Source of the DNA: Psammoneis japonica
Lineage: Eukaryota
DNA length: 64,000 bases
NCBI GenBank assembly: GCA_008632985.1
Contig: QPGO01000107.1
Span: 124,001 to 188,000, forward strand
Reading direction: 5' to 3'
In this document: positions 1 through 57,777 of the stretch, piece after piece
How positions within the stretch are numbered: the first letter of the stretch is position 1
Layout of the letters: every line of letters begins with the position of its first letter
Made by a program: the position numbers and the translations under genes
Notes under the pieces: model-generated
What the model was told of the DNA's origin: nothing
Database searches by the model: none
What the model saw: only the letters and a program-made list of their open reading frames with translations

Positions 1-385
1 GTGACATGGTCATGGCATTGCTGACCCCAACAAGCTCAGCTTTTGCACTGCTTTGGGCACTGAGCTTCTGGTGCTTTGACGTGGCTTGCACTGCTCCGCC
101 ATCCACCATTGCAACTCCTCCTGTGTGGCTCTTGAAATTGGGGTGCACTGCAAAACGAGGCATCCACGTGCCACTTGCAGCAACTTGGAGGTCCTTTGTG
201 CTTGGTGCAGCAACTTCATTTTGTGTCTGGCTCACATGCCTGAGACAATGGACTGGCTCCCCCAATCTTCATTCACAGTGCCCAGGTCCTTTGACCTGTG
301 TGCACAATGCTGCAACAGTGGGGTGCACATTCATGCGGCCACTCTTGGGTGCAAATGGCCCCTTGGCCACCCATGCTTGTGCAGC
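1..385 (-). mobile_element. Degenerate Ty1/Copia RT/RNase H fragment
   Basis: Alignable by eye to 47900-48260 of the Copia element in this window; the minus strand encodes remnants of FAVHPxFKSHTGG...QKL...SSxxAELVGV. No TpA in this stretch. Confidence 0.8.
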
Positions 386-943
386 ATGTGACTGTCACAT
401 GCATGTCTGCAATTGCACATCCTTTGCACATCAATCATGCCACAGTTGCGATGCTCACAAAGGACAGAACAATCACACAGAGTTGGTCGGAAGTCGAAAA
501 TTGCAGGTGCAATTGATTGATGAGCTGTTGACATCTTGTGTGTCAACAGCAATCACATCTGGACAATCTGTTGTCATGAACACATTCTCCGAAAGGCCTT
601 TTGTCTGCAGAAGCAGCACAGAAGCTTGCTTCAGGCCATTGAGAACTCATTCGGAGAAACCAAAAATCACAGAGTGAAATTTAATCTCACAATTTCCACT
701 TTTCGTGCTTCACTCTGCTTTTGTTTGTGCTGTTCTTCAAGCACAGTGCATTGTGCATGCACACCACAGAAGGCAAACACATGGAAAATGAAAATTTCAA
801 CCAACGTGCCTTTGCAAATTCTTCCATGAGCAGGAACGAATTGCGCCAGTTCTGCTGGAATCAATTTCCAAGTGGAAGAAGCTCAGTCCAAGCAGTGCCT
901 CAAGATGGAACACTGTTTTTTGTCTGTCTGACAAGAGGATTCG

Positions 944-2727
944 TCATGCATGACGGGCAACAGAGAGTTCATCTGAGTGGTGATCGAGGTCAGGAGGACA
1001 CTCGGCTCTCACACGAGATGCGGCAGTTGGGTCGCTGATGGGGGTTTTGTTTGAAAAGATGTGCCAGTTTTCCCTGAGGTTGTCGGCAAGGTAAAAGTCG
1101 GCTGCGGAATGGTGAAGCACACGCTCCGTGTCAGTTGCCTTGTCAATGATGTGAAGGCATGACACATGAGCAGCAACTTCGTCTGAGGTGACAGATCGAC
1201 ACTTGGACGGGTCAAAGTGCTGTCGGAGTGTAGACTTGTCCAACCACGACATGTCATTGGGGTCCAGTGGGGGAGATGACGCAACCGGGCCTTTCGTGGT
1301 GTGAACCGGAGGAGAGGCTGGCAGCTGGGCGGGAGGACCTTCCAGTGAAGAGGAAGGTTTGTGGGAATCCATGGTTTCTGACAAAGTGGGAAGGTTGGCG
1401 GTGAGAGTGCGGTTTGCCTCCCGTGACGACGGCAGGTCGGCAGACAAAGGAGGACGTGCCTTGGCAGAGCGTGATGCAGTCTTTGGCTTCTTGTTGGGGA
1501 CGGTCAAGGAAGGCTCTTGTGTGGCGAATGTGAACAATGGGACAAAATGTGGATGTGTGAGAAGACGGATGCACAAGAAACATGCGGTGACAAGGAGGGG
1601 GGGCACGCACCGTCGTACAAACAGGTGCCGTCTTTGCGGGTCCTCCCAATTTTGCGTTTGGTTTTGGATTGATGCTCTTGTTTGTTGTCATCATCCATGC
1701 AGTCAGCCCTCTGATCATGCACTCTGCATTGAAGGATTGTGAGCAACTTGCTGCACTTGGGTTGCATGCCAGGTTGTTCCTTGGGACAGTGCTTCCCAAA
1801 TTCGTGGTTCAACATGGAATTTGTTTTTTCTTCATGCGCCTCCCGACGGGCAAGGGAATCACCAGCCACCGTCACTTTGTTCTTCATGTTGCCGATTTGG
1901 TCTGGAGCAAGGTGTTCCTCAGTGTTGTCCACCTGAGAGCCTGGGTCGTTAGAATCGCGTGGCACAAGAAAGCTGTTGATGAACAGGCACCACTCCTTTT
2001 GCGATTGGACATGATGAAAAATCTGCATGAACCAGCAGTCGAAGTCATTTTGTTTGCACTGAATGTGACGCGTCACGATTTCGGTGACAAAAAATGCACC
2101 GTGGAGGTCTTGTGCACGGTCGTCGATCAGTTTTTTGAGATTGTCTTCCTTTAGAAACCGGAAACAAGGCTTGCCGGAAACGGGATCATTTGGGTCGTCA
2201 CCGGCAACATCAGTGTGGACAAATTCTGCCATGGCTTTGATGTCGCGGCGAAGATTCACACGGTGCTCTTCTTGTTGAACTGTCTCTCTGGGCATTTTGG
2301 AGAAACAGAGAGCTTCATCCAAATTTCGACAACGAAGGTGGTGTTGACCTTTCAGCGAGCGGGATTTCTTCAGGGACCAACCACGAGTCTTGATGTGAGA
2401 CCAAAAGTCAGGGCATCCAAGAGTTTTCCTGATGACACTGTTGGCGCGGATGACTTCTGTGACATGTGGAATTCAACGTAGCTTCAGCTTGTGGCAAAGG
2501 AAGGGAAGAGCAAGAAATTGCGGAGAGGAAGTCCATTTCATCGATTCCAAAAACTGCTTTTTGGATGCACGCGTTGAAATCATGCTTTTGAGCTTGGGAC
2601 CAAACAACTCCATTCCAAAACCATTGGCAAAATGTTCTGTGTCATCAAAATCACATTCATCAGGAAATTGGAAGGAAGGATTGGGGTCGACATCGTCGTG
2701 AGATGGGGTGAAGTCATTGACCGCCAT
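944..2727 (-). pseudogene. Hypermutated ORF relic of unknown function, probably transposon-borne
   Basis: Co-oriented protein-like ORF pieces (2473-2727, 1504-2322, 944-1606), nearly Tyr-free and Cys/His-rich, inside a TpA-depleted block. No family recognised. Confidence 0.35.
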
Positions 2728-3962
2728 GGCAAGAGGTCAGTTGTGATTTGCGTAGAAAGTGCGTGGATGACAACAGTGCATGCTCAGGTGGAAAGCAGTT
2801 TGGGGAGAGGATGTGCTGTTGTGAATTGCGCAGATGATTGCGCATGTAGAATGAGCACCCGAAGCAGGGTGGCACAGAAATTCCGGAAGTTGCTGGAAAA
2901 ATGATGCTGGAAATGTGCGTGAGGGAGACTGGAGCATGCCGAACAGCAGAGGACATGCCAGTCGACACGGTGGGGTGTGATGATGCGGAGATGTTAAAAA
3001 CCAAAATCAAAGACATCGGCTCAACACAAATGTGACATTGAGATCAAATGGAAATTTACAAAATCCAATGAAAGCCAAAATCAAATTAAATTGTCAAGAA
3101 CGACCAAACACAAACAGACAACAAATGTCGGCATTGAACAGATTTAACAAGTTCAGTGTGTTGCTTCAATTTGAGTGCGAAAACAACAATTGAAGGTGCA
3201 ACAAAATTAACTACAATTGGCAACATTCGTGTGTAGAAAATTGAAAACCACTGCATTGCCGCCTCTGATGAGCATTTTGCCATCATTTTTTCTTTGTTGG
3301 AGTGGGTGCCTTCTGTGTTGCCGGTGCAACCCGCTTCAGACCAATTTTTTGGAGTCGAGCCCCCCTGCTGCAGGGCACAGAGAGGGCACATTTTGCCTCT
3401 TTCCCCCCCTCTGAATCCCAGCCCATTTGCCTGTTGCCATTGCAGTCACACAGAACTGGGCAGCTCCCAAACTCATGCCTGCAGCTTGCCGGGTGTGCGC
3501 CAAATCGGCGCCTCGTGCAGCCTGTCAGCTGCGCCCCTTGTTGCTCTCGAAGCTCCTCCTTTGTTTGCCTGGCAGCAGCTCATTCTCCATGGTTGAATGA
3601 TCAACAGTGTTGATGCAAATGAGAGCTGCAACTAAAAGAAAATGATGTGTCATTGGCAAACCACTGCATGCTGCAGCGCTTTTGCAAAATTGCGTGGGGG
3701 GGGGGGGGGGGGGCACTTGCACGTGCTAAAATGCAGCAAACACACAACATTGAATTTTTCGCGAAAAATGCTCAAAAAGTCATTTTCGCGATATTTCCCG
3801 CAACTTTCTGGTTTCTGGCCTTGCATGGAGAAAACGAACGAAAAAGCGCAAATCGTCGCAATCCACAACCACCCATGCACGCACCATCATCGCATCAAGC
3901 GACCCGAGAGACCGTCCAACAGGAGATCAGGTATCGGCGAATAATCAGTACAGGAAAGCACC

Positions 3963-5051
3963 ATGGAGGACGTATCTGAAGACGGTGGCGGTGATCACGG
4001 CATGGAAGACATGTCAAAAAAGGAGCAAAATCAAGAAGAAGCCATGGAACAGACGACAAAAATGATGGCGAAAACCGCCATGGACTCTGCCACCATGAAC
4101 GAAGAGGAGGAAGAAGAAACCGAACGTTCGCCAGAAGTAAAGGCTCGCTTAGAACAACTGCGGGAACTTGATAATGATCGCAATGAAATTATGGAATCCT
4201 ATCTGAAAGAACGGGCAGAACTTGAACAAAAGTATAGCTCGCTCTGCAAACCATTGTACGACAAACGAGCCGAGATTGTGAATGATGACGAGAAAGGGAT
4301 TCCAATGTTTTGGGTCCAAACCATGCAACAAATGCCAGTAATGGGTCTCGTTACGAATTCAGATGTGGATTGTCTCAAACACCTAACCGACGTCCAATGC
4401 CGTGATTTTGAAGACGGTGGTGGCTTTGAACTATCGTTTCATTTTGAACCAAACGAGTACTTTACGAATGACGTGCTGACCAAACGATATGAGGTCCCCA
4501 ACCTTCTCACTGCAGATGAACCCATTCTCAAAAATGTTGTGGGGTGCAAGATTGAATGGAAGGCTCCCGGGAAAGCTTTGACATTTCGACAAGTGACCAA
4601 GAAGCAACGAATCAACTCGGGACCCAACAAGGGTAAAGTTCGAACGGTGCAGAAACGAGAGCGACAGGAATCATTCTTTCATTTCTTTGAACCTCCGCGA
4701 ATGCCGTCCATGAAGGACATGGACGAGCAACAAGCCAATAAATTGGAAGAGGCTTTTGAACAAGATTACGATGTGGCCCAAGCGTTCCGTTCTCACATTA
4801 TTCCAAAAGCTGTTCTCTGGTTTACTGGCGAGGTGAGTCATTGTTTCTTACGCCAAACTTAGACCCAAACGAAGTACGATGTCATGTTGTGTGGAAACCA
4901 AAAACTGAATTTTTTGCACGAAATTCTTCTTATATAGGCACTAATGAGCGATATGGAATATATGATGAATGACCAGTCGTGGCCTGAGGGAAGTGATCCT
5001 TTTCCTCCGCCAGCAAGTGGTGATGAGAATCCGGAATGCAAACAGAACTAA
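3963..5051 (+). CDS. NAP1: Nucleosome assembly protein 1 (NAP family); exons 3963-4832 and 4938-5051
   Basis: NAP motifs KGIPMFW, FHFEPNEYFTNDVLTKRY, GCKIEWK, ESFFHFF, IIPKAVLWFTGE. Phase-0 GT..AG intron at 4833-4937. Exon 2 ends ENPECKQN*, like the NAP1 CKQQ tail. Confidence 0.93.
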
Positions 5052-5366
5052 GGTAGAGCTGAGTTATGCTGTAGTGCTCTAGTGGAGACAGAGAGCTCCC
5101 AGAAGCATGACAGGACTCTTATATGGCTCTAGAGAGTACCGTAGAGAGCTTCCAAAAGCTTGGAAAGTAGAGAAATTCTATTGTAGAATCAATCCGCACA
5201 ACCAAATCAACAGCAGAGAGAAGAGGGGCAGATGACATTTCGAGCTATCGACATCGTAAATTACAGTAAAAGAAAAACCTCGAGGTGGAAGCGCGCGAAG
5301 ATCATATTTGCGCGCATCTCTTCAAGATTTCAGATTCCTCGTCATCTTCAATCTTCGCCATGGCCG

Positions 5367-6620
5367 ATGGCAACCGCTGCCACCTTCGCACGTAAGGTTC
5401 GTTCTATTGTTTCTGGAACTCGTGCCATGAGCAACACCCGGGGAACTTCGAAACGCTCATCAGTGGGTAGTATCACTCCTCAAAGTAGGGCGACCCAGCG
5501 TCCGAGGAGATCGGCTAGACTGTCGTCGGACGGGTGGTCTACTGTGAATCCAACATTATTAGAGACGCCTACTCGACCACGCGCAGCTAAAGCTCTTCCC
5601 GCAGTAGCTGTTACTCCGGACCAGGAATGTACTATTGTCTTGTCTGTATTGGAAGCTCCGTCTGACTTTTCTTTGTCACAAGCTATTTGTTCGTATGGTT
5701 ATTTTGGCCTGGCTCCAAACAAGTGGCAGCCTGCCGATTCAAAGAAACACGACGATGACGGTATCTTTGAACGACCCTTGGTATTTGGAACCACAAATGA
5801 TGAAGAGTTTGCCGCATTGATTCGAGTCGAGCAGAGCTCTTGTAAAAGACAGCTCAAAATCATGGTGACGGGAGGAACTGTGCCGGGGACTCTTGGAGAA
5901 AAGGAACAAATCATTACACAAGTCAAGCGCATGGTGCGTTTTGACTGGTCACCGCAAGAGTTCTGGAACATGAACAAACAAGCCAAGGAACGTGGTTACG
6001 GACGAACGTTTCGCAGTCCGACTTTATGGGAAGATATGGTCAAGACTTTGACGAATTGCAACATGCAATGGAGTGGTACGGTGCAAATGAACCGGCAAAT
6101 GTGCTCGGAATTGGGACACGTTTGTAGCGATAACGGGAGCAATCAAGTGGCGGCATTTCCCACGCCACGACAAGTTCTAGATTTTGGTCCCGAAAGGCTC
6201 AAAGCACACTGCAGAGTGGGTTACCGGGCACCGTGGATAGTTGAATTGGCATCCAAGTTTGTCAACAAAGAGCTTGATGCAACTTGGATCGAAAACGACA
6301 GCGTCTGCAACGAAGAGTTGTTTCAGACGCTCTCGTCACTCAAGGGCTTTGGGAATTTTGCAAGCTCCAATGTTATGCAACTTCTTGGGAGATACAATGT
6401 TTTCCCATTGGACACAGAAACAACGCGTCTCTTTCGTGAAGAATTCGGTGTTGCGAAAAGTGTGCCGCCCCCAAAGGTGCATCAACAGGCACGTGATCAC
6501 TACGATCAGTTTGCACCTTATCAGTTCCTCGCCTACTGGTTTGATCTATGGCGGAATTATGAGCAGAGGAAAAACCTGTTGAGTCCAAGATGGGAGGTGG
6601 AAACTTGTACCTCGTTGTAG
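5367..6620 (+). CDS. HhH-GPD superfamily DNA glycosylase-like protein (AlkA/OGG1-like fold)
   Basis: Motifs FSLSQAICSYGYFGLAPNKW, GRTFRSPTLWEDMVK, FPTP, VGYRA, HhH LKGFGNFAS, and FPLD with the catalytic-position Asp. Start codon uncertain (5232, 5367 or 5427). Confidence 0.8.
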   Translation: MATAATFARKVRSIVSGTRAMSNTRGTSKRSSVGSITPQSRATQRPRRSARLSSDGWSTVNPTLLETPTRPRAAKALPAVAVTPDQECTIVLSVLEAPSDFSLSQAICSYGYFGLAPNKWQPADSKKHDDDGIFERPLVFGTTNDEEFAALIRVEQSSCKRQLKIMVTGGTVPGTLGEKEQIITQVKRMVRFDWSPQEFWNMNKQAKERGYGRTFRSPTLWEDMVKTLTNCNMQWSGTVQMNRQMCSELGHVCSDNGSNQVAAFPTPRQVLDFGPERLKAHCRVGYRAPWIVELASKFVNKELDATWIENDSVCNEELFQTLSSLKGFGNFASSNVMQLLGRYNVFPLDTETTRLFREEFGVAKSVPPPKVHQQARDHYDQFAPYQFLAYWFDLWRNYEQRKNLLSPRWEVETCTSL

Positions 6621-7084
6621 TTTTAAACTGCTTCTACGGCACCGGATAACTGAGTGATCAGGACAGGCGATCCATTGACCCATCAATGAGTACAGATAGA
6701 GTTCATCTCAAACTAACTTGACCCGCTTTCGTCTCTACCTCGTCTCTCACGAGCTCGTCGTTCATTTTCTCAGGACGTCCCTACATAGTACTCTAGCTAG
6801 AGTGAGTTCGTCTTCCCCTTCTTAGTGTGTAGGTGTTCCTCTACATAATATCATAACGGGCACAAAGGTACGGTAGCATTCTCCCACCCCTGACCAGGTG
6901 AAACAGAAATTGTTGTGCTCAAAGCGCAAACGCGCGGTCGCTCGCGCCCCAGCGCAAACCGCGGAAAACCCAGAACGAGGAAAAAAAGGAACAAAAGCAC
7001 TTCACTGTAGTAGCAAAAACAAAGCAAAGGCTGTCTGGTCTCAGGATAGTGCATTATTGTGTCGTCGCCATATTGTCGTGGTCA

Positions 7085-7888
7085 ATGGCATTTACCCTCT
7101 CATTGATTCCCAGTCCCCGACTGTTTCTCATGCTGGTCGGTGTTTCGTTACGGTCGCGATCATTTGCATTTCAAAACATCGCAAGAATGGCTCCAAAACG
7201 AATAAGCGCGAGTGTGTTGAACGTTGCCGAGAAGAAACAAAAGACAATTTCAAGTTACTTTACATCGAATCATTCATCCAAAAGTAAAACGAATGCATCT
7301 ACAAAAGACATTTGTGACTCGGGTACTGACTACAAGATTTACTGTGACTTGGACGGTGTCCTTTGTGATTTCGATACGGGTGTGAAGGAATTGTTCAACG
7401 GCCGTGGTCCGGACCAAGTGCCCAATCAAGGAGCAATGTGGGGTGCTATTCATAAAAAGGAAGGTTTTTATACTCACTTGCCATGGATGTCAGATGGAAA
7501 AGATTTATGGAATGCCATTCGTCACAAAAATCCTCAAGTATTGACGGGCGTCCCCGTCTCCAAAAAAAGCAGAGCCGAAAAGGCGGCGTGGTGTGCTCGT
7601 GAGCTAGGGGTTACCACGAATCATGTGGATATGGCGGCACCCAAGAGAGGGCATATGCCAGTATCGGGGCGAATAAAGGATGGGGTCGTCAATGTCTTTA
7701 CTTGTTGGAGCCGTAACAAGCATCTTGAAAGTGGCAAAGGTGTGGTATTAATTGACGATCGAGAATCACTTTCCGAGAAATGGGAAGAGGCAGGTGGGAT
7801 TTTTATTCATCACATTGATACCGTAACAACCTTGAAGAAACTAAGACACCATGGCATTCTGGAAAAGGGGAAGGTGAGCCGAAGATAA
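7085..7888 (+). CDS. HAD-superfamily 5'(3')-deoxyribonucleotidase-like phosphatase
   Basis: HAD motif I IYCDLDGVLCDF, motif II VLTG, motif IV VLIDD. Hydrophobic N-terminus ending SFAF may be an organelle presequence. Start uncertain. Confidence 0.8.
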   Translation: MAFTLSLIPSPRLFLMLVGVSLRSRSFAFQNIARMAPKRISASVLNVAEKKQKTISSYFTSNHSSKSKTNASTKDICDSGTDYKIYCDLDGVLCDFDTGVKELFNGRGPDQVPNQGAMWGAIHKKEGFYTHLPWMSDGKDLWNAIRHKNPQVLTGVPVSKKSRAEKAAWCARELGVTTNHVDMAAPKRGHMPVSGRIKDGVVNVFTCWSRNKHLESGKGVVLIDDRESLSEKWEEAGGIFIHHIDTVTTLKKLRHHGILEKGKVSRR

Positions 7889-8422
7889 TGTTGTCGTACA
7901 ATAATAACATTGCGAGGAGAGGAATAAATTCAACTCCTTCCTTTGCGTTATTGCGCGCTATGCAGGATGTTGCGGGAAAAAGCAGAGACTTCAGCTGAAT
8001 CCCCTTTAAACAGAAGAACAACTGGTGATGGTTTGCTTAATAGAAAGAAGCAGAAGGTAGAGGTGAGTCAGCCTATGGCATTGTAACTGTCGGCACGCGA
8101 AACCAGTCTCTCACCACCGCGTGAACATCACTTGTGTTGCAGGACTCCACAGAGAAGGACTCAGTTGATAATTGCTGATATTGAGAAAAGAAGAATCATA
8201 GGGCTGGTGAGAGTTCTCCACCTGAAAATAGACTAAACGACATTCCGGTTGAAACGAATTCTTCAGTGTAGAATTATGGGGTCTCGGCGTTTCAGCCTAG
8301 AAAAATTTGCCAGTTGAGCAATGCAGAATCTACCACCACTGTACCAAAACGTCTAGGAGAAGCGGGTGCAAACGATATCTAAAACATTAGAGGATTGTCA
8401 CTGCAGTATCCTACACTGTCTG

Positions 8423-9085
8423 CTATGAACGTTTTCGCTTTTCTCCTCCGCGTTGACCTTCGCTCTTTCGTCGTTTCTTCTTTATCTTTGCGTCTAGATT
8501 CCCAATAGGTGCAGCTGCTGCTACCTCATCCATTTCATCTCCCAAATTATTTGAATTTCCCCGACCTTTCACGTACTGCTCGTATCTTCGAAGCAATTCT
8601 TCGTCTGATATGTGTTGTTTCTTGGCGCGTTCTCCGGCTTTTCCGTCCGTGTATGCGTGTAGGGCAGATTCCCATGTAGATGCAACATTCTTGTTGAAAT
8701 CTCCAAAAGATCGCCTCCCCACCAAATTTGATTTGATCCCGTACATATCAGAAGCCGTAGCAACTTGCGGTAAAGTGCTGTCACCTTTATTATCGCAATC
8801 TGATGATTCGCCACCGGACAAATCGTCGTCGTCCACTTGCATCGTGTCTTGCGTTTTTCTCTCGGGGTGCTTTTTCGTTGGGTCGGATTGACTACCTCGT
8901 CGTTGCATAAATCTCATCCCCATTGTCGCACCCGAGAGCTTCTTTTTTGGTGTATTGCTTCCGTTTGGGGGGCGAGTGTCGTCGTCCTTGGTGGATGTCA
9001 CATCCATGGGCGTTGTTGTATTCTGATATGTTCCTTCATGATTGTTTGACGGCGGCGACGGCTTTGCAGTCCCCGGTTTCCACAT
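8423..9085 (-). CDS. MPP6: M-phase phosphoprotein 6-like exosome cofactor
   Basis: KLSGATMGMRFMQR and GRRSFGDFNK match the two conserved MPP6 motifs; ISDEEL and a basic C-terminus follow. Confidence 0.8.
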   Translation of the reverse strand: MWKPGTAKPSPPSNNHEGTYQNTTTPMDVTSTKDDDTRPPNGSNTPKKKLSGATMGMRFMQRRGSQSDPTKKHPERKTQDTMQVDDDDLSGGESSDCDNKGDSTLPQVATASDMYGIKSNLVGRRSFGDFNKNVASTWESALHAYTDGKAGERAKKQHISDEELLRRYEQYVKGRGNSNNLGDEMDEVAAAAPIGNLDAKIKKKRRKSEGQRGGEKRKRS

Positions 9086-10179
9086 GCTAAATCAAGGCAA
9101 AGGAAGCCTTTTCTAGTTGAATAATTTGATGATGACAATGGTGAAGCTAGGTTATCAACGTCAGATAGAGACAAACCACAAAATGGAAGAAACAAATGAA
9201 ACGAAAAGCAATAACAGCAGGAACACTCCCGGCTTGGGAGGTCTGTAATTGGTACGGGAAGAAGAAGAAGAGAAAGACCTCCCACGGATCGTTACATTTT
9301 TCAGTATGAGGCTACGACTAGCATAAACGTACCTGTTATACCGGTCAGACATTTTGTATTAGATTTTATGTACGCCTTTATTTAATGATAACGGTTATTG
9401 CCAAAACAAATAGCAGGTTTTACATGTGTATCATATACAAATGTCTCACAAAAGTCCATACCTTTCAACTATTTAGATGTTTTTGTAGATGTTACACATT
9501 CAACCGTCGATACTCCGTTTGTCAACTCCGTCTTTGAATAATACTTCATATATGCTCGTATGTTTGATTAAATTTGCGTGGCGGGCGTGGGCATGACCTT
9601 CATTTGAATTCGTACTTAAGAAGAGTCATTCTATGTATTGCCTCAGCATTTTCTTCGTTAAGTGCGTAGAACAGTACAAATCTTACGCAAAAAGTCATAT
9701 GCAGTCATTCAACATTCTTGTATATTCGTCATTAATAAATCATATCAATGTTTTTTATATGTCAATGATTATATCATATTGCATTTTATGCTAGTCGAAG
9801 CCCCATACTGCTGAGCTAATCTGGCCAGTTAGCAAAAATCAAAAAGCGGAGAACGACTTACAGACCAATTTTTTGTACCAGCCTCTACACATTTTTCTCG
9901 TAGACACCATGGCGCTGTTGCGTCGTTTGCACCGTCGTCGTCACGTCTTTTTATGGGGTGAGTTATGCATAAGATTCATGTTCTTTGTCCATGTCATGTG
10001 TAAGCGTTGGCCCAGTCTCGATAAGTGCCGTGCGTGTTGCAAAATGTGTCGTCGACTGAAGTGGTGTGATGACTCGTTTTTTTGTCATCCTTTGACTTTG
10101 TTTCTTTTGTTTTACCTTCTTTTTTGGTTTGTGCTCCAATGCATAGCATTTTATTGTCACAACATAAGCATGAGTAATG

Positions 10180-13100
10180 GGTGACAGAGTGTGAGTCGAG
10201 TTGTCACCCTGGCAATGTGCGTTTGTGGTTGTCACATTGTCTGGTGGTGTGCTCGTTCTTTGTTTTGTGGCTCGTCGTTCCTTTGACTTCTTTCGCTCTT
10301 GTGGTGTCAGCTCTTGCCCCTTGTTTTGCCTTGTCTTTTGACATGTCAACAACATTGGATGGAGGAGTGAAATTGAAGTCTTTCAAGTTGATGCAACACT
10401 CCTCTTTGTTGCATCTGGATTTGGAATGCCTGGAAACGACGCTTGACCAACCCGAGCGCGCTGAGACTCGGGCTCGTTCTGGATTGATGGACAAGATGCT
10501 CCTTCATGTGCTTTTCCCACGTCCTGCTAAAAGTTTCAACAGCACATGTGTCCGTTCCAAGGGATGCCAGACCGACCAAATCATTGCCTGCAGGATGTTC
10601 TTGTGGACGTGTTCCAGCCGCACGTGACCCAAATCGTGCACAAAAACGACATTTGCGCGATTTTTGCGCGGTCTCTGACTTACGAACGGTTTTTCACCAC
10701 CAAAAGTATAGATTTATTCAAATTCTAATGTTTTGCAACACTGACAAGACTCGTGTGAGTGTTGCAAAATCATTGTCATTGTGCCATCAATGTTTTTCAT
10801 TGCGACAAACGAATCGTAACACAACGGATGATTTTCGGCGAAATTATTGCCGTCATTTGGATGTCAACTAAACATGTCTTTCTAAGATGCTTTTTCCTAC
10901 ATTTGCTGCTTACAAAGAAATTTCTGCACAAAGAGCACTGACGTACAATCAGCATTGAGTCTGCTGAGGAAGTTTGTGACACATGTCCCATTGGGAATGT
11001 GACACCCCACAAAAAACTGTTTAATTCTTCATAATCACACATGCTCTAGACGCCTGTAAAAGCCAATCCGCTTAAGTGTTTTATGTGAAAATACTTCATT
11101 CACTTTTAGATGCACAATTTACATTCAAAATCGATTGTCGTTTTGTGTGTCACCTGGGACTGGAACACGTCTGTGCCGAGTTCTTTTTAAAGGCAGCACA
11201 CGAGAGGTTCTTTTCGGTGTCGAACTGGTTGTTGGAAGGGAAGCACAACATGCTTTTCGATGAATTTCATTTGTGCTTGTGTCTGCTTTTGGCAAGTGCC
11301 TTCTGGAGGCTTTTCCAAGACGCACCTGATTTCTGATTGCACTTGGGCGATCCGCTCTTGTTGGCTCTCCAAGAATGCTCAACCATTTGTCTTGTCTGCT
11401 TCATTTTGGATTCCCAGCCTTTTGAAAACAATTGTTTGGGAGCCTTGGGTGATCGCATGATTGTGGGATCATGTCATTTCAACAAGAATGGCGAAACACA
11501 CCCAGTGGCCCACTCCATTGTCACGCTCAATGAAGACGGAAAGGTGGGGATCCGCGTGCAGCAAATTTGATGGCCGCTGCTTCTGCAAAGTCAGCTCAGT
11601 TTTGACACTTGACAAAGATTCTCTCCCCTCAGTGGCTGCATTTTGCTCCTGTGATTTGTCGCTTTTACATGAACCCCGTTGCGCGGGAGTTGACTAAATC
11701 CTGTTCAGTGCTGTGCAACAAACGACAATGCATCGGCGCCATGGTGAGCATCAGCGGGGAGCGATGCATCGCGAGGTGCTTTGCACAAGCACCAAGGCCA
11801 CGTAGAATTTAATGTGGCACGTAGAAATTGCGTAGAAAAATTTGCTGGCCAGACAGAAAAGTGTGACGCTCCGTGGGAGTGCAGCAGGAAAAACAATGTG
11901 GAATGACGGGTTCTGTGTCGGTCTGTCGATCGGCAAATTTTGGCGCACATGGTCTGTCCACATGTCCGATTTTGAGTGGCTGCGGCGTGACGCTGTGCGG
12001 GACGATGACTCGTGGGTGCAATGACCAGACAAGGCAGCACATTGCCCACCCAGGTTTCACTGTTGTGGAGGACCTGGAGCAGGTCCCGGTGACCAAGATC
12101 AGTGACATGCTGAAGAAGGTTGTCATGAAGCAGCAGCAGATCTGGCTGTCAACCCTCAGGTGCAGTTCCCCCGCACCTTGCAAACCACAAGCTCAAGGCC
12201 TTGCATGCACATGGGCAGACTGCCAGGACGGTGCAAGATCAAGCTCCAATGCTGCTGTGCATGCCAGTGATGTCATTGCCAAGTGATGGGGGTGGCATGT
12301 CTTGCTCAACTGGAGAGCAGCTGAAGTCAGCAGATGAAAACGGCAGCTCAAAAACAGCGCTGTTCTTGTTGAGCTCAAGCACCTCTTTGACTCGCCTTTC
12401 AAGAGTTGTTGGAGAGACCAAGCTGCACCATCATGGGGGGGGGGGCACTTGTTTGCCTCATTGGGGGGAACATGAGTCAGTGGCCAACATGCTTTGGCTC
12501 CAGGTGGGACACTGCACTGCTGAGCTGCAATGTCGACAGTTTCTTGGATTGTGCCACATGTTTTTAGCGCACGTGTTTCTGCGCGACATTTGCAGAATTT
12601 TGTGTCATTTGTGGTGCAATTGTTGGGTGATCCATTCAACAACTTTCATCATTTTTTGCTTCTCTGACATCTTGCTCAAATGTCTTAAGAATGGTGTGAT
12701 GCAGGTGGTTTTCAAAAACTCAGAGTGCAGAAAGGTGTGAATGCACCACAAACATTTGGTTGTTCATTTGAGTGTCAAAGACAAATGCAGCACCTGTCAA
12801 CCAGAATGCAAGCTGCAGAACTTGCACATGGAGTTCTGCAGGCAATGTCACATTGAGCCCCACCCAGGCACTTGCAGGATTGCAAGTGTCTCTGTGACAC
12901 ACTCAAGAAACTGGTGATGGATGGGCCCAGATGGGCCTTTGCCAAGCCATTGAAGCACACTCATGATGGTCGCGGTGTGTCATGAGACGATTCTGTGCCT
13001 CCAATTGTCATTGATTGGGATTCTTCCAATGAGGGTGGAAGGGGTCTGGGGATGAGCGGTTGTCACAACAACCGCAGGTCAGCCGAACACCATTGTGACA

Positions 13101-13440
13101 ACACAGAGCTTGTGTCTTCATGAAACGAACTTCGCCCACAAAGTTTCATCTGGCAACTGACAAGATGATTCCCAGTCATTTTGTCTCATGCTTTTCAATT
13201 TTGTGAAAGTTTTTGTGCACAATGACTGGCACAAAATGAGCAAGTGAGGTTGGCACAAATTCTGCACATTTCCGGGTTTTTTGACAAAAAAAGGTGGTTG
13301 CCATTGAGTGCGGTTACACAAGAAGGGCTTGTGCACATCACACCAACAATGACTCTTCATTTGCAAACAGTTGAGCCAGTCAAGCTGGTTGGTTTCACAT
13401 CTTTGATCAAAAATGACTCTTCTCAAATGCAAATCCGAGC
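10180..13440. repeat. Degenerate TpA-depleted repeat/TE debris, unclassified
   Basis: TpA nearly absent apart from patches at ~10680-11130; no recognisable intact domain. Confidence 0.4.
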
Positions 13441-43726: not shown

Positions 43727-44113
43727 TGCAGCAGGCATCCCTGCCGCAGCCGCCGATGATGCTGCTTTCCTGCATCTGTGGGCTGTCCGCAGCGACGCTG
43801 ATCCTGCAGAAGCGTGCATTGGAAAATGAAACTCCTGGCATAAGACCCACGAGAGGCTGCAGGAGATCCAGGCGACTGAGGCCGGCGCGACTGGCCATCG
43901 TGCAAGTGACTCACCTTGTGCCGGTGTGAAGGGTCTGCAACAGGATGTGCGCAGTGCCGAGCATGACTGATTCCGCGCAAGGACTCAGAACTCCATGTGT
44001 CTCACTGTCGCACATGCATGCTCTACGTAAAATGGTCTCACAATTTTTCCACACCACAGGAAATCTCTGTCTCTCTACGACTGAGTGCTTGGACCCCATT
44101 TTTGCACAGGGCA
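43727..44113. mobile_element. Probable solo LTR
   Basis: 387 bp, TG...CA, flanked by a GAAT duplication. Removal restores the LINE RT frame RSHSHTDDSPLCGTGQG. Confidence 0.65.
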
Positions 44114-47558: not shown

Positions 47559-49247
47559 TCAGAATTCTCGTCTGACGTCACAAACAGGAATCTTGCCTGT
47601 TGCTGTCAGGACTTGACGTCCCATGACGGCTCGTTTAAATTTTAAAAACTTTTCACCTTGCAATGGCTTGGTCATGAAATCTCCAATCATCGCGTCGGCA
47701 GGACAGCACTCGACAGTTGGGTTGCCCTTCTCGACTTGGTCGCACACGAAGAAGCATCGTATGTTCAGCACTCTGGAGCGCTTGCCTGCGCTTCGACGAC
47801 CGTTTGTCTCTAACAGTGTCGCACTTTTGTTGTCTTGGCATGGGATGTTCTTGTCGATGGGACATCCTTGGTGCTCCACAAACAGCTTTGTCCATGGGAT
47901 CATGGTCATTGCATCGTCGACACCCACCAGCTCAGCTTCTGTGCTGCTTCGGGTGTTCAATTTCTGTCTTCGTGACACAGCTTGTGTCGCTCCATCGCCC
48001 ATTGTCATCAATGCTCCGGTGTGGCTCTTGAAATCTGGATGCACCGCGAAGGATGCATCGACGTGCCACTTTGTTGCTCGGAGATCTTTTGCGCTCAGGG
48101 CAGCCACCTCATTGCGCATTCGATTCAGATGCTTGAGGTGCCGGATGAGCTTCGCCCAGTCTTTGTTGGCAGGCTCTCTTGTCCGTGTGCACAGTGCTGA
48201 TGTCGTCGGATGGACGTCCATGCATCCGCGTTTGGATGCGAACAGTCCTTTCGCCACCCACGCATGAAATGTCTGTGCTTTCTCTGGCGGCAATTTTGTT
48301 CCACCCACCTCAAATGGGTTCTCCCCTGCTGGTGTCACAGCAAAATCTGTGCTCTTGATCTTTTCCGGAAATTCGTCAATCACAGATCCGACATGCTTTC
48401 TCATGTCTGCCATCACCTTTCCTTTGTCGGTGAAGTCCAGGATCACACCGAGGCAGTCATGCTTTGGACCCCTCGTCACCACGACTTCGCCGTGACTCCC
48501 GCACTTCCTGTTCAACCAGTTGAGGAACTTGTCGTTAACTTTTGGGTTGACGTGGCTTGACAGTAAGTCATCCACATGAAATTGCACTGTGCGCTGCTTT
48601 CCGTTGACAATTCGGTTGGCAATGCACGGGTCACATGGGTTGAACTTGAACCCTGCCCTTTCCAAGTCTTTGCGGAACTTCTTGCACCACAGCAATGCGG
48701 CAACAAGCATGCCGTAGATTGCTCTGACGACTTGGACGTAAAGGACTCTCTTTCCTTTTTCTAGGACCACGTGCGGTCCATGCAAGTTCGGATCAATGCT
48801 TGCCAGCATGTCCACAAGTGAACCTGCGATCTTCATCATGATTCGTTCCTCACCTTCCTTGGGTTCTGGAACTTCTGTTTGAATGAATGCGTTGGGGACA
48901 TCAGCGCTCACAATGTCGCGTCCCTCGTCTGCATCAATCACCGCAGTCATCAGGATTCCTTCCAATGATGCTGTCGGACTGGCTGACTCGTCTTTGTCTG
49001 GCCATTCTCTGGATGGTTTCCCGTTGTGTGCCATCCGCCCTTTGATGCGACCATCGCGTTTCTCTGCAAGGAACATCAGGGCTGTCATCGCTTTCTTCCT
49101 CTCGGTCGGAGTCATGCTTTTCACTGGCACCGGTTGGAAGCAAACTCGGTCGTGCAGTTGTTTCATTTCTTTCTGTGAGGCGTCATGTCCTTGCTGTCCA
49201 AACAGTTTGAGACCTTTGTGCAGCAGATGTTGCTGACCGAACGACAT
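47559..49247 (-). pseudogene. Copia RT-RNase H: open frame but hypermutated
   Basis: DVPNAF, AIYGML, FHVDD, VDASFAVH, SSTEAE, QDNKS, DFMTKPLQG; only 2 Tyr in 562 aa. Confidence 0.92.
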
Positions 49248-52200: not shown

Positions 52201-54799
52201 GCAGCCTTTGTCTTGTTCTTCTCAAACTCTGAGAGCTTTCCACGGCACTCACCTGGTTCCGCCATGTGCCCACAGATCAACTGTCTGTTCTCGAGCTCTC
52301 TGTCTGCATCGTCTTTGGCTGCAGATGCCTTCAGCACTGGTTTCTTGCCACTGAAATCCTTGCAGTTCATGTCTTCCAGTGAATGGGCTGAGTGCACGCC
52401 CTGTTCGCACTCCTTCTGGATGCAATGCACTGGCTTTGTCTTGACTTGCTCGAATGTTGCGTTGCGAGAGTTGCTGTTCATGGAGGACGAATGGAATTTC
52501 ATCTCCGTGGTGCAGTTCTTGCCGTTGAATGCCTTCTTCTTCAAGTTGGAAGATTTGTGGCCTTTGCTGCTGTTGCCGCGACCATTGTTGCGGTCTTTTC
52601 CTTTTCTGTGCGGGTCACTCGACCCTCTGTCACTCATTGCAACAGGCTGCTGATTGTCTCCTTTTGGACTGTAGACTTTCCATTTAATGAGCACTCCTTG
52701 CTTGTGACTCTTTAGAGTGAATTTTGAACCGACGAGTTGATGGCGGTAAACGGGAATCTTGTGAAGAATCCTCTGCTCTTGTTGTGCTCGTCCTGGTTGC
52801 TTGCACGGCTGTGGTTTGCCTGGAAGATTGCTCAACACAAACTTCATTCACTTGTCAGACATTTGTTTTAACAGACACTTCCCAGCACCGATCGACACAG
52901 ATGACAAACCAGATGATTCACTCCAAAGAGTGAGAAAGTTGTTGTTGCGTGAACGACAGATCGATGACAAAGAAGACACAGTCATCGGAATGTGCACGTC
53001 ATCGGGTTGTACACGTGTGGAGCCTCACATGTCTTTCACTTCAATTCACATGCATTCGGGTTACTTTCACCCCGCGTTCACATGCTCCAACAGTGCCACC
53101 TGGTTCACAAGGAGTGGAGAAGGGAGTCTTTGACAACAAACAGGTGATTCTGCCATGACACAAGCCTCTTGTTGCCGCTGCCGTGCAGCTGTGCCGAACT
53201 TGGAATTGTGCAGTGTCTGAACATGTCTCAGAGACGCCTGTAACATCAGCTTGAATTTCCATGGCCACTTGTGCACAATCATTGATGTCGCCACCATGGT
53301 GATCAAATGAACAGCCATTGGTGTTGAACGCACACAATCTTGTGTGTCCAGACAATTTGGGGAGCAGTGGATCACCAACAGGGTCATTCGAAGACAATCT
53401 GGTGCAGTCAATGGCAGTGGAGGGAGGGGCGCGACTTCTTCCTGACAACAACTGGGTCCACTGCTGTGCAGCGGGATCAACTGCAGACGAAGGGGCATCA
53501 CCCCTCATTCGGAGGCCGTGCTTCCTTGAAGGAAGGCTTTTGAAGACTTGCGTCTGCATCATGCAGTGGAGGCAGGTGAGACAACTGGGCCTGCCTCAAA
53601 GAAAATCTGAGTCATCCGTGTCTGTCACAGTTGCATCCCTGGGAGGATGATGAGAGGAGGGGGCTGCAGGGACCAACGCAGCTTGCTTCTTGCGCTGAGG
53701 AGAGACTGGTGTGTTTGGAACCACAGATGCAAACGTCTCTTGAATCATCGTTTGCAGCTGGGCTGTGAGAGTGGTTTGTAATTGTGTGGCCACTGCTTGC
53801 TGTGACTGGGTGGACAGCGCCGCAATTGATTCTTGGTGCTTCCCTTCTAGGGCTGCAAAATGTTTTTCTTGTTCTTGTTGGTTTTGACAAACAAGCTGTT
53901 GTAATTTGGCGATTTCCGCAGACTGGTTCATCACATCCGACATGGGGATGGCACCAGGGATGACTGCTCCAGGCTCATTCTGCAACACCTGGGAATGCGT
54001 GGGAAAACCTGCACTCACTCCGACACTTTTTGGGACTGGAGGACCTTTGGATTCTGTTGATTGAGGAGGAGCGATGGAAGCTGCTGGAGAAATGTCTGAA
54101 ATGTCTAGAGACGCCCAACTCTGAATGCTTGTGGAAGAGATGGATTGAACCCTGTCTGACATGTCATCACCAATGCCAGGGATCATGGGTTTGGGTTGGG
54201 CATCCGGGATGCCTGCCTCTGCTGCAATGGCTTCAAACCACTCTGGAAGATGTTCTGCAATGCAGTGCTTGGCTTGATGGAACAAATCCTTGTCCACAAG
54301 AATGTCGCACCTCTGGACAATGGATGGTTTCTTCAATGGGACCACGTCCAGGACTCCTGGCACCTCTTTAATTGCACCTGTCAGGCAAAAATAGTGGGCT
54401 TCAATGTGATGCAATGCCGGTGTGATGTGGGTCTTGGCACTCGTTTTATGTTGTTTGTGGGCTGCTTTGTCAAAAGCTTCTGGTTGCAAATGACGCCAGC
54501 GGGACAAGACCAACGCAAGAGGATGTTCTTTCAACACCTCCAATGAGGCGTGAATCACATCTTTTGCTTGATCATGGGGAGTTTTGATGGCATGGAAATT
54601 AGTCCGAAGAGATTGATCTGCCAGTGATGAAGCCGACTGAACTGCCAACCTGAAAGGCAATTTTGAGCGGCTGCGTTGAGGGAGAAGGGCCATTGACAAT
54701 TTTTGAGCCACATCTTTGGGGCAATGCTTTGGGAGTGGGTCAACAAGTGGAGCCACTTGTGCCAAATCAACGATGGTCTCGTCCCAGTGGTGGTGGTGC

Positions 54800-57777
54800 A
54801 TGTAGATGCCGCAGGAGCTGATGCAGGGGCTTGCTGCAAGAATGATGGAACTTGCAAGATGATAAGGCCAGCAAGGTGTAACGAGTTGGGTCGCCATTAC
54901 GTTGGAGATGGCGTCCTATGTCACCCCGAAATTTGCGACTCTGGGACAGAATGCTGCCCAACAGGCGACGAGCCGTGCTGCGGCCTCAGCTTTCTTGAAT
55001 GTCGCGATCTTGCCTTTTCCTTCGAGATGGGCTTCCAGCAGGATGTAACAGGGGACACAACGTGGAAGGAGAGAGAGGAAAACTTGATTGTTCCCATTAA
55101 TGAGGTTCTCGATGAGTCTGTCAGAAGCGAGAACACGGGTGAATTCATTGCAACCACCGGTGCGATCACGTTCAGGTTGAGGATTGACGATGTTATCAAG
55201 ACGTCCGACGAAATCATCGATGAAATCTCATTGGACATGTCTACGGATGCAGAGACCTTGGAGACAATTTCCGAGTATGACATGAAGTTGACTCTTTTCA
55301 ACGGCTCTGTGGGAGCTGATCGCTTCGTAGGCCTTGCGTTGTCCACCATCAATCCAAAGATGAACAAATTTGAAGGCTCTCTCATTTTTTTTTGGAAAAC
55401 CTCAAGACGACGACAAGGATGTTTCTCGCCATTTGCAACTCGTAGTCAGCTGCTCAGATGCATTTGATGAAGCTAAGGCTGCGTACAGATGCCCAGTTCC
55501 GGGCGACCTCCCTATCATTGACTATCGTTGTCGACGTGACCTGATTTTTGCTTGTGAAACGGCCGTTGCGGCAGCAACTGGTGAATTAGAGAGAGCAATT
55601 GAACAGGCAAGGCTGGTTAAAGAAGTGGCAGAGGCAGCGTTGACAGCAAGGAAGATTAATAAATACGTTGTCGTCGCTGCAAATTGCATACCAACTGCAA
55701 TTGGCTTCTTCGCTTATCTCGCATGCGTAGCAGTGGGCGCCGCTACAACCGCGGCGATTGACATTGCTATATCGGTTGCTATAGATAGAGCTTTTCAAGG
55801 TGCAAAGCTCTTGGCCATAGCAAATTATGATGCTATCGTTCGAGCGGCGATCGATTACATCAAACGAAGGGCGCGAACGTGCTTTCACTGTTGCAGAGAC
55901 GATCCGGATGATTGCTGTCCCGAATGTATGGAAACCGAGACTTGCTGTGAAGGAGCTTGCATTGCACCCGAAGAGTGCTGCCCGTTGTGCTTTAGCAGTG
56001 ACGAATGCTGCGAGGGATCTTGTGTGCCTAAAGATTGCTGTGGCAGCAATGATCCTTGTTGCGGTAGTCAAGATCCATGTTGTCGGGAGCCGAACGATTG
56101 GGACGAGGGCGGGAGTATGGGCGATCCTCATATAAGAACCTTTGACAATGTGGGTTTTTCTTGTCAAGGAAAGGGGGAATTCATTCTCTTTCAATCCTTG
56201 GCATCTGGTGCCGAGGTTCATGGTCGCTTCGAGAAGATACAGCACCGCTTTTTATCCCTAACTAAGGGCTTTGCCGCCATTGGAGGACCCACGAGTCCAA
56301 CTGTGGAGCTCTCTATTCCAAACAAAGATCAAAATGCCTTAGAGTTGCGCATTAACGGTGTATTGACCGATCCACGCAGTGGATACAACGATGCCAAAAT
56401 CGCAGTGACAGTAACCAGCAACAAATTCACTGTGTTTTTCAAGACAATCAAGATGTCGGTTGTCGCTCTACACATGTTGGAAAGGCCCCAGCACCTTAAT
56501 GTGTTTGTACGACTTCCCAGAGTGTTCCGAGGAGAAGAGATTATTGGGTTGTTCGGCTCTCCTGACGACAACCCTTCAAACGACTGGATTGCAGCCAACG
56601 GAACCGTTCTTCCCTTGCCAACCTCTGATCTACGTAAGCGGGCGGGCTACGAATACTGCGTATCAGAGTGGTGCATTCAAGATTCTTCTAGGTCACTGTT
56701 TTCCCACAGTAAACCCTATGACTTCTCCTTCTTCTACGGATGCGATGAGCCATACAAGCGTGACAAGTTTCGAGCCCTAGTGTCACCAGCGCTGCAAACG
56801 CTGTGTGGTACAGATGAAGCCTGTCTCATTGATGGAACAGCGCTCGGACTTGCTGGTGCTCAGAGCCTTCTAGAAACGGAAGCTGGCCTCAGCAGCTCGT
56901 CATCTTCCGCTCGGTTTCGAGCAGACCCAGCTGCTATCGTGGTACGAGCTTCCTTCAACATCGCCTTGGTTGTAAACCTAAAGTCGTCCGCCAATGATGT
57001 CAGGGATGTTGAAGCGTTCTCAGTTTATCGAGTCGACTCAGATAGTCGTGAGGTTGGACGCACAGCCATTGTCACCTTGCAGTTGGAGCGGACACTTCTG
57101 AAGGTGATTTCATCTTCTCTAACATTCTTGCAATTGAATCGGACACCCCAGGTGAATCCTTTAGCTTTCAGGCTGTCCCAATTATTGGAGGAGTAGAGAA
57201 TACTGCTTCGCCATTGGTGTTTACGGCATTGAACGCGGTACGCTCGTTTTCACTCAACTCTGGAATTGGGAGACCTATCTACCCAAATGAATCCCCTTTT
57301 CCAAAAGGATTCATCACGGTAGATTCAATCAAAGGTTTAGTTCTCGTCCTTCAGTATTCGTGGCCAGCCGATAAGACTGACTTGGACACCGCAGTACAGT
57401 TTCTTGATGTCACTGTTGGACAGTCTTGTGGTTCATCCTCTCCGTACATCAAATTCAGCGGAGACCGTAAAGCAGAAGGTATTGAGGTGGCTCGTATCCT
57501 TCTCGGCGAGTCCAACGAGGATGGCCAATGGAAGAAAGTCAAGGTTGAATATTTTGCCGGTTGGTTCGGTTCTACGAACCAAGGGCCGGCTTCAATTACG
57601 GCTTATACCGAAAGAAACCTGAAAGACGGTAGTACTGAAGTGGGCAATAACGCAGTGTCGCTTCCCATCAATCCAGGGGCTCAAGGTGGTTGCACGTCCG
57701 CAAATGTTGGTACCGCATTCGTTAACATTGGAAAGAATGGCACCGTCCGAATTGAGCTCGTATCATTTGCAAGCTGA
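54800..57777 (+). pseudogene. Cys-rich von Willebrand factor type D domain protein, 5'-disrupted and frameshifted
   Basis: GACC..DGTC...GDG..C module, Cys-rich repeats, VWD GDPHIRTFD...CQGKGEF...GLFGSPD. Frameshifts at the T9 run 55385-55393 and at ~57080. No native start before the LINE junction. Confidence 0.7.

Follow-up and report, generated by a model that had tools for sequence, protein, structure and literature searches.

In a 64,000-nucleotide stretch of the Psammoneis japonica genome (GenBank assembly GCA_008632985.1, contig QPGO01000107.1, positions 124,001 to 188,000 of the forward strand; hereafter the window, numbered from its first base), long blocks of repeat DNA that include two Copia retrotransposons and a 51-bp satellite have lost about nine-tenths of the TpA dinucleotides that their base composition predicts, and are rich in TpG and CpA. 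Comparisons among repeat copies and with homologous elements show a post-integration process that acts on DNA, site by site and on either strand, converts A:T to G:C at 5'-T-A-B-3', is confined to the repeat blocks and is very fast relative to background substitution. The interpretation that I favour, with a probability of about 0.5, is an enzyme-driven, targeted genome defence that would work like fungal repeat-induced point mutation (RIP) with opposite chemistry.

Results

TpA is almost absent from the repeat blocks

Three TA-poor blocks, taken as they had been set in an initial annotation of the window (1-3700, 10180-29700 and 33000-54800; 45,022 bp in total), were compared with the remaining 18,978 bp. 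The blocks contain 246 TA dinucleotides, against 2,834 ± 39 in 200 mononucleotide shuffles, which corresponds to an observed/expected ratio (obs/exp) of 0.087; outside the blocks the ratio is 0.563. This confirms that TA depletion is far beyond chance. TG and CA are in excess in the blocks (obs/exp 1.585 and 1.683, versus 1.194 and 1.141 outside) and CG is reduced (0.59 versus 0.985), while for each of the 12 remaining dinucleotides the difference between blocks and surroundings does not exceed 0.1. Per kilobase, TA obs/exp lies between 0.02 and 0.16 in most of the block DNA and between 0.40 and 0.81 in genic DNA. The initial annotation, which had described the blocks as almost devoid of TA and rich in TG and CA, is borne out on both counts, and its hand count proved exact: there is no TA in bases 1-680, the first one being at base 682, and 17 are found in the first 680 bp of the NAP1-like open reading frame (ORF; 3945-4624). 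The excess of TG plus CA in the blocks, about 2,590, matches the sum of the deficits in TA (about 1,350) and CG (about 1,100), as calculated from the dinucleotide figures. Two processes that both end in TG or CA therefore explain the whole shift in composition.

Between three gene islands, the blocks hold two Copia elements (identified by RVT_2 Pfam matches), the 51-bp satellite and much unclassifiable DNA. Their features are as follows (LTR, long terminal repeat; MITE, miniature inverted-repeat transposable element; RT, reverse transcriptase).

1-3700: repeat block A, TA-depleted (TA obs/exp 0.02-0.19 per kb)
First ~1 kb of block A, minus strand: Copia RT fragment of the element 2 type (the starts of 61 tblastn segments of element 2 homologs fall in the window's first kb)
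10176-29700: repeat block B, TA-depleted (TA stops at 10175 and is dense again from 29713)
10606-11171: MITE-like, TA-normal insertion within block B (26-nt terminal inverted repeats at 10606-10631 and 11146-11171)
13444-14186: 51-bp satellite, first array, TA-depleted (Tandem Repeats Finder period 51 and monomer alignment)
14178-25241, minus strand: Copia element 1 (LTRs 14178-14459 and 24960-25241; RVT_2)
25240-26070: 51-bp satellite, second array (Tandem Repeats Finder period 51 and monomer alignment)
29923-30041: TA-intact short repeat, on the promoter side of a gene
33070-45651: block C1, unclassified, TA-depleted and strongly CpG-depleted (TA obs/exp 0.02-0.12, CG 0.05-0.68)
34670-34782: mutated copy of the short repeat, inside block C1
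40398-42512, minus strand: 704-codon frame with one stop, inside block C1
45652-53092, minus strand: Copia element 2 (LTRs 45652-46020 and 52724-53092)
53093-54800: TA-depleted tail of block C

Two qualifications to the initial annotation follow from this inventory. Block B, which it had described as almost devoid of TA, is so overall but not at 10606-11171, where an island of normal TA content lies between 26-nt inverted repeats. The claim that all classes of repeats are mutated holds for Copia and the satellite, but not for short MITE-like repeats, in which TA is normal, and the LINE that it had listed could not be confirmed. In block C1 and the other blocks, 111 of 115 ORFs of at least 90 aa have no Pfam match at E ≤ 0.01 (the four ORFs lying in satellite arrays were left out of this search). 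No homolog was found for the ORF 40398-41519(-), for which the Atlas language model gives just a lead to RNase_H/zf-RVT; it gives nothing for 41523-42512(-). TAA and TAG are nearly absent from the blocks, where most of the 78 ORFs of at least 150 codons in the window lie, on both strands. TA-free blocks are full of long, overlapping, spurious ORFs because TGA is the sole remaining frame-ending codon.

Conserved tyrosines have become cysteine or histidine

Element 1, whose LTRs are 91.5% identical over 282 bp, is covered from 14527 to 23473 by tblastn matches of homologs of about 1,900 aa. Its RT motif reads CVDD (15584-15595, minus strand), with GNACLE and ALHGL close by. On the gag side it carries an internal tandem duplication (21496-22861 and 22862-24232; 1.37 kb, 91% identity) that could be used as an internal clock of the hypermutation. 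Element 2 is about 24% identical to element 1 and belongs to a separate Copia lineage. Its LTRs are 89.8% identical over 371 columns, one reading frame with 4 stops runs from 52847 to 47559, the RT motif is HVDD (48567-48578, minus strand), and FNPCDPC, HDCLG and NIRCFF lie within 47748-48644(-). All six tyrosine-lacking peptide motifs that the initial annotation had quoted were thus found.

Fifty full-length homologs of at least 1,700 aa, with a mean Tyr content of 3.9%, served as outgroup for element 1, and a column counted as conserved if 25 or more homologs were aligned there and 80% or more of them agreed. At the 31 conserved Tyr columns, element 1 has no Tyr at all, but 21 Cys (TGY), 7 His (CAY) and 3 other residues. 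Other residues are retained at their conserved columns: Phe at 87%, Trp at 91%, His and Gly at 95%, Lys at 82% and Asn at 83%, and AGR or AGY products are absent. Only 58% of Arg columns are kept, the products being those of CGN to TGN or CAN changes, so that Arg loss in element 1 reflects CpG decay. In element 2, the 9 conserved Tyr columns hold 5 Cys, 1 His, 2 Tyr and 1 Phe, and the whole frame (1,763 codons) contains 0.28% Tyr, 3.57% Cys and 4.14% His, the median Tyr content of 270 homologs being 3.7%. When both elements are pooled, 40 conserved Tyr columns give 26 Cys (TGY), 8 His (CAY), 2 Tyr and 4 others, whereas the non-Tyr residue classes with at least 10 conserved columns are kept at 58-100%.

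The same direction of change is apparent outside tyrosine codons. At codon junctions, T precedes none of the 119 retained codons that start with A (C precedes 81, G 30 and A 8), as compared with 19% in unmutated relatives, and T is the preceding base at 8 of the 12 A-to-G changes seen in first codon positions. These codon data show no enrichment of A-to-G change after A, C or G, and bear out the initial claim of a preference for TpA over other contexts. Finally, a short repeat is present in two copies, one of which (29923-30041) lies beside a gene and keeps its TA dinucleotides, while the other (34670-34782), in a block, reads TG or CA at no fewer than 7 of those sites. Comparison with homologs and between copies thus establishes the direction as TpA to TpG or CpA, that is, A to G on one or the other strand.

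The changes arose in DNA after integration

Six pairs of copies of about 90% identity were examined for the dinucleotides at which they differ. There are 42 TG-versus-CA doubles, 19 TA-versus-TG/CA differences, 65 CG-versus-TG/CA differences and no CG-versus-TA difference. A model in which only CpG decays, fitted to these pairs, was rejected as an explanation of the doubles, since it predicts 6.1 instead of 42. The LTR pair of element 2 is an instructive case, since the two LTRs of one element are identical when made. Of its 34 mismatched positions in 371 columns, 18 belong to 9 TG/CA doubles, 5 are of the TA type, 9 of the CpG type and 2 of another kind: 32 of 34 therefore lie in dinucleotides derived from TA or CG, and the 9 doubles compare with about 0.8 under the CpG-only model. 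From this pair I estimate that background divergence may be below 1% and TA loss about 80-90% per copy; the rate of TA loss would then be hundreds of times that of background substitution. Likewise, in an alignment of 17 satellite monomers, 8 have TG and 8 have CA at one dinucleotide column, where neither CG nor TA occurs, while three true CpG columns retain CG in 6-8 copies.

Since LTR pairs, tandem duplication and satellite all differ by TG/CA alternatives, the changes arose in DNA after integration, and the LTR and satellite results rule out that RNA editing, or faulty reverse transcription, acted alone. They also bear on a possibility raised by the initial annotation, namely that intact family members are themselves TA-free: the elements appear to have carried TA when they integrated.

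The third base influences the fate of each adenine

Survival of TA was analysed using the 220 sites left in 43.9 kb of block DNA and 741 sites in 18.7 kb of genic DNA. It varies with the 3' neighbour of either adenine of the palindrome. Relative to genic DNA, survival is 0.66 for TTAA; it is 0.03-0.08 when one of the two 3' bases is T, 0.07 for the pair (C,C), 0.12 for (G,G), 0.17 for (A,C) and 0.32 for (A,G), and ATAT has no site left in the blocks versus 54 in genic DNA. A product model in which the two strands are independent, with per-adenine survivals of about 0.1, 0.27, 0.34 and 0.81 for a 3' T, C, G and A, respectively, fits 9 of the 10 classes closely, the exception being (C,G), modelled at 0.09 and observed at 0.158. 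As judged from these survivals, the target is 5'-T-A-B-3', with TAT > TAC ~ TAG >> TAA, and TTAA is nearly spared. A rule based on the base 5' of the T was rejected, as it predicts about 14 TG outcomes at Tyr codons whereas 26 are seen. The 3' rule, applied to codon junctions, predicts about 12 first-base changes, and 12 are seen; selection, considered as a cause of the excess of C before A at these junctions, is therefore unneeded.

Outcomes at successive sites show no strand-coordinated runs (runs tests on four series, p = 0.92, 0.55, 0.89 and 0.50), and each site is resolved independently, on either strand. AA is not depleted either, its obs/exp being 1.25 in the blocks and 1.21 outside. 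The third-base rule, with TAA and TTAA spared, is a feature that the initial annotation did not contain, and so is the parallel, separable CpG decay described below.

The neighbour preference is relevant to an alternative mechanism, in which retroelement transcripts undergo A-to-I editing by an ADAR- or ADAT-like enzyme and the edits are fixed by reverse transcription before integration. RNA adenosine deaminases do produce A-to-G changes with a preference for a 5' U, and sense-strand TG exceeds CA at the Tyr codons of the two elements of the window, 26 to 8. However, ADARs are reported to favour a 3' G and to disfavour U, while the best 3' neighbour is here T (T > C ~ G >> A); antisense-strand CA changes are abundant, with Cys and His nearly balanced, 26 to 27, in seven other proteins described below; the LTRs of a single element differ by TA-derived changes; and the satellite and the tandem duplication are affected too. 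As the sole cause, editing before integration is contradicted by the LTR pairs, the satellite, the tandem duplication and the involvement of both strands, and I consider this mechanism extremely improbable.

Public reads reproduce the TA-free sequence

Evidence from reads was available as Logan contigs from one public sample. The contigs of one read set, X1, whose library type is off record and which may be the assembly's own source or polishing data, span from a gene into a block at a word depth of about 182-264, equal to that of the adjacent unique gene, and reproduce the TA-free sequence at about 98-99.6% identity. One of 3,071 bp (31137-34207) has 12 differences from the window, and others of 1,529 bp and 2,650 bp have 30 and 20, respectively. 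Contigs of a second set, X2, cover only the gene part, including 30214-32826(+), in 8 of 30 bins; they are transcript-like by guess and were not used to assess expression of the blocks. A third set, X3, has no contig that matches the stretch.

Differences between the window and X1 amount to about 0.75-2% in the block (33072-39090) versus about 0.1% in the gene (30270-33071), and 10 of the 12 differences of the 3,071-bp contig fall in its ~1.1 kb of block. This suggests either a much higher allelic or strain diversity of the block or continuing mutation. Among the 21 differences listed for 30.6-36.2 kb, beyond which there are 159 more, 3 are in the gene part and 18 positions are in the block. 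The latter correspond to 16 events: 3 TA-versus-TG/CA, 2 TG/CA doubles, 3 of the CpG type, 4 A/G differences after A and 4 others. That TA-type events make up 5 of these 16 despite the small number of TA left suggests that the process continues, and the hypermutation is probably still ongoing.

The initial annotation had named a base-calling error as a possible source of the pattern. A separately assembled read set of high depth, X1, is also TA-free, and base-calling error is unlikely. A broader possibility, that a modified base in repeats misled sequencing, base calling or assembly, draws on the sequencing platform of the window being off record and on the reads being from a single sample. 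On the other hand, the X1 contigs, at a word depth of 182-264, give the same TA-free sequence and yet disagree with the window at 0.4-2% of positions, genes carried by the same molecule are unaffected, and each site is in one fixed state, where a symmetric modification misread by polymerases would be expected to yield both TG and CA reads. The signature is also found in proteins from ENA, Logan and JGI assemblies (see below). An artefact of any such kind is thus very unlikely.

The signature occurs in other assemblies

Tyr content is 1.3% or less in 8 of 270 database Copia homologs, encoded by contigs from ENA (2), Logan (2) and JGI/IMG (4). Seven of these eight have Cys or His at conserved Tyr columns (26 Cys and 27 His in all) and keep Arg, while six control proteins keep Tyr at such columns. 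For protein P0198, a scan of metagenomes retrieved 8 unmutated relatives with 76-82% amino acid identity and a TA obs/exp of 0.47-0.70, the contig of P0198 itself not being among them. Where these relatives share a codon and the codons adjoining it, P0198 is changed in 16 of 34 TA contexts, 15 of them as predicted by TA-to-TG/CA conversion, as compared with 24 of 240 contexts that lack both TA and CG, and with 4 of 33 CG contexts. The number of sites informative for the 3'-base rule in this comparison, 23, is too small. Two metagenome contigs, L001 (318-6050) and L002 (968-6703), each carry an intact ORF for a Copia polyprotein, of 1,911 and 1,912 codons, respectively, in which TA content is normal; these elements are apparently unmutated relatives of P0198 and possibly active.

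P0198 and the Tyr-poor proteins indicate that the signature is not peculiar to the assembly studied here and that it occurs without CpG decay. The initial proposal that TpA is converted by A-to-G change on both strands of repeat DNA is thus upheld by four comparisons: Tyr columns, codon junctions, the short-repeat pair, and P0198 versus its relatives.

TA loss has sharp boundaries and spares short MITE-like repeats

TA density switches within tens of bases at 10175/10528, ~29700, ~33062 and ~54800. A similar switch delimits the 566-bp MITE-like unit of block B (10606-11171), which has 20 TA between 10681 and 11120, while none is found in 10176-10527 and 11189-11665; this insertion escaped the TA-loss process. 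It resembles a second unit located beside a gene (9302-9810): both have 26-nt terminal inverted repeats, 92% complementary in 9302-9810 and 85% in 10606-11171, and a normal or high TA content. The short repeat beside the 870-codon ORF, which has an X1 word depth of 1,570-2,315, 6-9 times the single-copy level, also keeps its TA. In this window, genes and short repeats of up to 566 bp retain TA. Long elements and the DNA surrounding them would therefore be the affected material, and short, currently repeated elements seem to be spared.

CpG decay on the same DNA is separable from TA loss

CG obs/exp varies from 0.05 to about 1.0 among segments that are equally TA-free, the lowest values being at 36-39 kb. 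TA has been lost as completely from 20-22 kb, a stretch with a CG obs/exp of about 1.0, as from 36-39 kb, where CG is almost gone. A separate, slower decay of CpG to TpG or CpA operates on the same DNA. Since TA loss is complete whatever the CpG level, it saturates well before CpG decay, and CpG loss may provide a clock by which segments of the blocks can be ordered by age. In the LTRs, CpG decay is about 100 times background, by arithmetic on the copy pairs. Deamination of 5-methylcytosine (5mC) is compatible with the CpG depletion, and accounts for about 1,100 of the ~2,590 excess TG plus CA. As the cause of TpA loss, cytosine deamination was rejected, because it cannot remove TpA and because the loss is complete where CG obs/exp is about 1.0.

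Coexistence of the two decays nevertheless raises the possibility that TA is lost during error-prone patch repair of deaminated 5mC (T:G mismatches) by a polymerase-eta-like enzyme that inserts G opposite T at WA motifs. A to G at TA is the strongest hotspot of polymerase eta, CpG decay is seen in the blocks, and 4 of the 16 listed block differences between the window and X1 are A/G after A. Yet the AA half of the WA motif is not depleted (1.25 versus 1.21), conserved Lys and Asn columns (AAR and AAY) have no products of an AA-to-AG change, at 20-22 kb TA loss is complete with CpG intact, and the Tyr-poor database proteins keep their Arg codons, that is, they display TA loss without CpG decay. 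I regard this route as improbable.

A less remote alternative is that no dedicated mutator exists and that a maintained mutagenic mark at the palindromic TpA (an oxidised or hydroxymethylated T, or a modified A) decays in the manner of methylated CpG. Like CpG, TpA is its own complement, and changes on the two strands are independent, with no strand runs. Moreover, CpG decay at ~100 times background in the same LTRs demonstrates that mark-driven decay can be fast here, and the TA-type events that separate X1 from the window suggest that change goes on. Against such a mark stand the MITE-like insert within block B, which has not decayed at all, and the TA loss itself, as complete at a CpG obs/exp of 1.0 as at 0.05; the full-text literature searched yielded no such mark, and I know of no base modification mark at TpA in any eukaryote. 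A TpA mark is therefore a possible explanation, though a doubtful one.

Gene islands of the window

The TA-normal islands that separate the blocks contain the following features.

3945-9091: TA-normal gene island (TA obs/exp 0.40-0.63)
3945-4862, plus strand: NAP1-like ORF (Pfam NAP, 4.8e-64)
8423-9091, minus strand: MPP6-like ORF (Pfam MPP6, 1e-16)
29713-33062: TA-normal island (short repeat and 870-codon ORF)
30214-32826, plus strand: 870-codon ORF
54803-64000: TA-normal gene island with a VWD-like ORF, WDR12/YTM1 and PPR ORFs (Pfam; TA obs/exp 0.44-0.74)
58492-60141, minus strand: WDR12/YTM1

The closest named relatives of WDR12 all come from diatoms (Chaetoceros, Seminavis, Fistulifera, Thalassiosira, Cylindrotheca and Skeletonema; 41-48% identity), and other matches reach 57%. 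Several long, intron-free ORFs in the islands have no Pfam match at E ≤ 0.001: 30214-32826(+), 5187-6620(+) and 6902-7888(+), of 870, 477 and 328 codons, respectively. The WDR12/YTM1 ORF overlaps a PPR ORF (59699-61066, plus strand) by about 440 bp on the opposite strand; as the overlap is measured on stop-to-stop ORFs, the two genes may just be close and divergent.

Discussion

The sequence shows that integrated repeat DNA has undergone saturating point mutation, the A of 5'-T-A-B-3' being changed to G on either strand. In the interpretation that I favour, adenine would be deaminated to hypoxanthine in double-stranded DNA, the activity being aimed at long repeats or at their chromatin. For an element, the consequence would be that nearly every Tyr codon (TAY) becomes a Cys or His codon, including that of the catalytic Y of the RT YxDD motif, and that TA-containing signals are destroyed. 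A-to-G change with a T immediately 5', the pattern expected of a TadA/ADAT-like deaminase, is what is found; it is compatible with such an enzyme and identifies none. A wider proposition, on which I would put the odds at somewhat less than even, is that diatoms, or a lineage of them, possess a chromatin- or homology-guided enzyme system that edits double-stranded DNA at 5'-TAB-3' until TpA is gone from long transposons.

Several points weigh against a targeted enzymatic defence. The words 'defence', 'targeted' and 'adenine deaminase' all go beyond the sequence data from which I infer them, and the silenced state that the initial annotation gave to the repeat domains is an assumption. At a palindromic TpA, A to G cannot be distinguished from T to C on the opposite strand, and a chemistry aimed at thymine is an equally good fit. 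Runs coordinated along one strand are absent, unlike in RIP and in single-strand deamination of the APOBEC type. Fast CpG decay in the same LTRs means that spontaneous, mark-dependent decay can be quick in this DNA. A transposon nature could not be demonstrated for most of block C1 (33-45.6 kb), TA loss in the Tyr-poor database proteins is deduced from protein, and all the reads used here come from a single sample of one study, X1 being possibly the assembly's own data.

Among known systems, RIP in Neurospora and other ascomycetes offers a close parallel in behaviour: its transitions are saturating and confined to repeats, affect both strands, have sharp edges, spare short repeats and destroy coding capacity. 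However, RIP changes C to T mainly at CpA, which creates TpA and AT-rich DNA, whereas TpA is lost here and GC content goes up. C-to-T or G-to-A change at CpA is indeed not what the blocks record, given a TA obs/exp of 0.087 and the replacement of Tyr by Cys or His at 34 of 40 columns. In addition, the mutations of one RIP event are on one strand, while neighbouring outcomes are independent in the present case. The CpG-directed 'RIP-like' hypermutation of basidiomycetes and 5mC deamination share with the process described here the decay of a self-complementary YpR dinucleotide to TpG or CpA in transposons, but they cannot remove TpA, the loss of which is fuller than that of CpG and independent of it. 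Hyper-editing by ADAR and mRNA editing by fungal TAD2/TAD3 (ADAT) also change A to G with a strong 5' U/T preference; they act on RNA, in contrast to what is seen in integrated DNA and in the satellite, where T is the best 3' neighbour and A the worst. Polymerase-eta mutagenesis at WA, as in phase II of somatic hypermutation, shares A-to-G change at TA, but AA is untargeted here, and saturation at every site over tens of kilobases is unlike the spectrum of a repair patch. The inferred chemistry, A to an inosine read as G in DNA, is that of the engineered adenine base editors derived from TadA, which prefer 5'-T/Y and which, unlike the process in question, are laboratory constructs.

To our knowledge, there is no description of a natural DNA adenine deaminase from a eukaryote, and the repeat-directed mutators that we know of (RIP, RIP-like CpG mutation and APOBEC) all remove C or G.

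In the full-text literature searched, which excludes subscription journals and supplements, hypermutation by TpA loss is not described for any organism, a paper retrieved on diatoms and hypermutation (PMC9258296) being irrelevant in the parts consulted. Two published observations are of interest, as far as the parts consulted report them: many diatoms have a DNMT4 related to fungal RID, the function of which is unknown (PMC9998398), and stramenopile-specific deaminase-SAM-Tudor proteins of the cytidine-deaminase clade have been predicted (PMC3239186), the latter being a lead only.

At a practical level, TA-free DNA is a trap for gene finders, in that it produces spurious long ORFs and hides transposons from homology searches. 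TA obs/exp in transposons would provide a simple statistic with which other algae can be surveyed. The process raises GC content and removes from transposons Tyr codons, TAG, most TAA (a TAA changed to TGA remains a stop), TATA-like motifs and poly(A)-like signals. If true, removal of TpA by A:T-to-G:C change would represent a new class of genome defence, of an origin independent of RIP and with opposite chemistry, as well as a new force acting on genome composition. The enzyme responsible might act as a natural editor of adenine bases at a defined three-base motif, and would then be the first natural DNA adenine (or thymine) base editor of a eukaryote. The finding would bear on the control of mobile DNA in diatoms, whose genomes are rich in transposons and which rank among the major primary producers.

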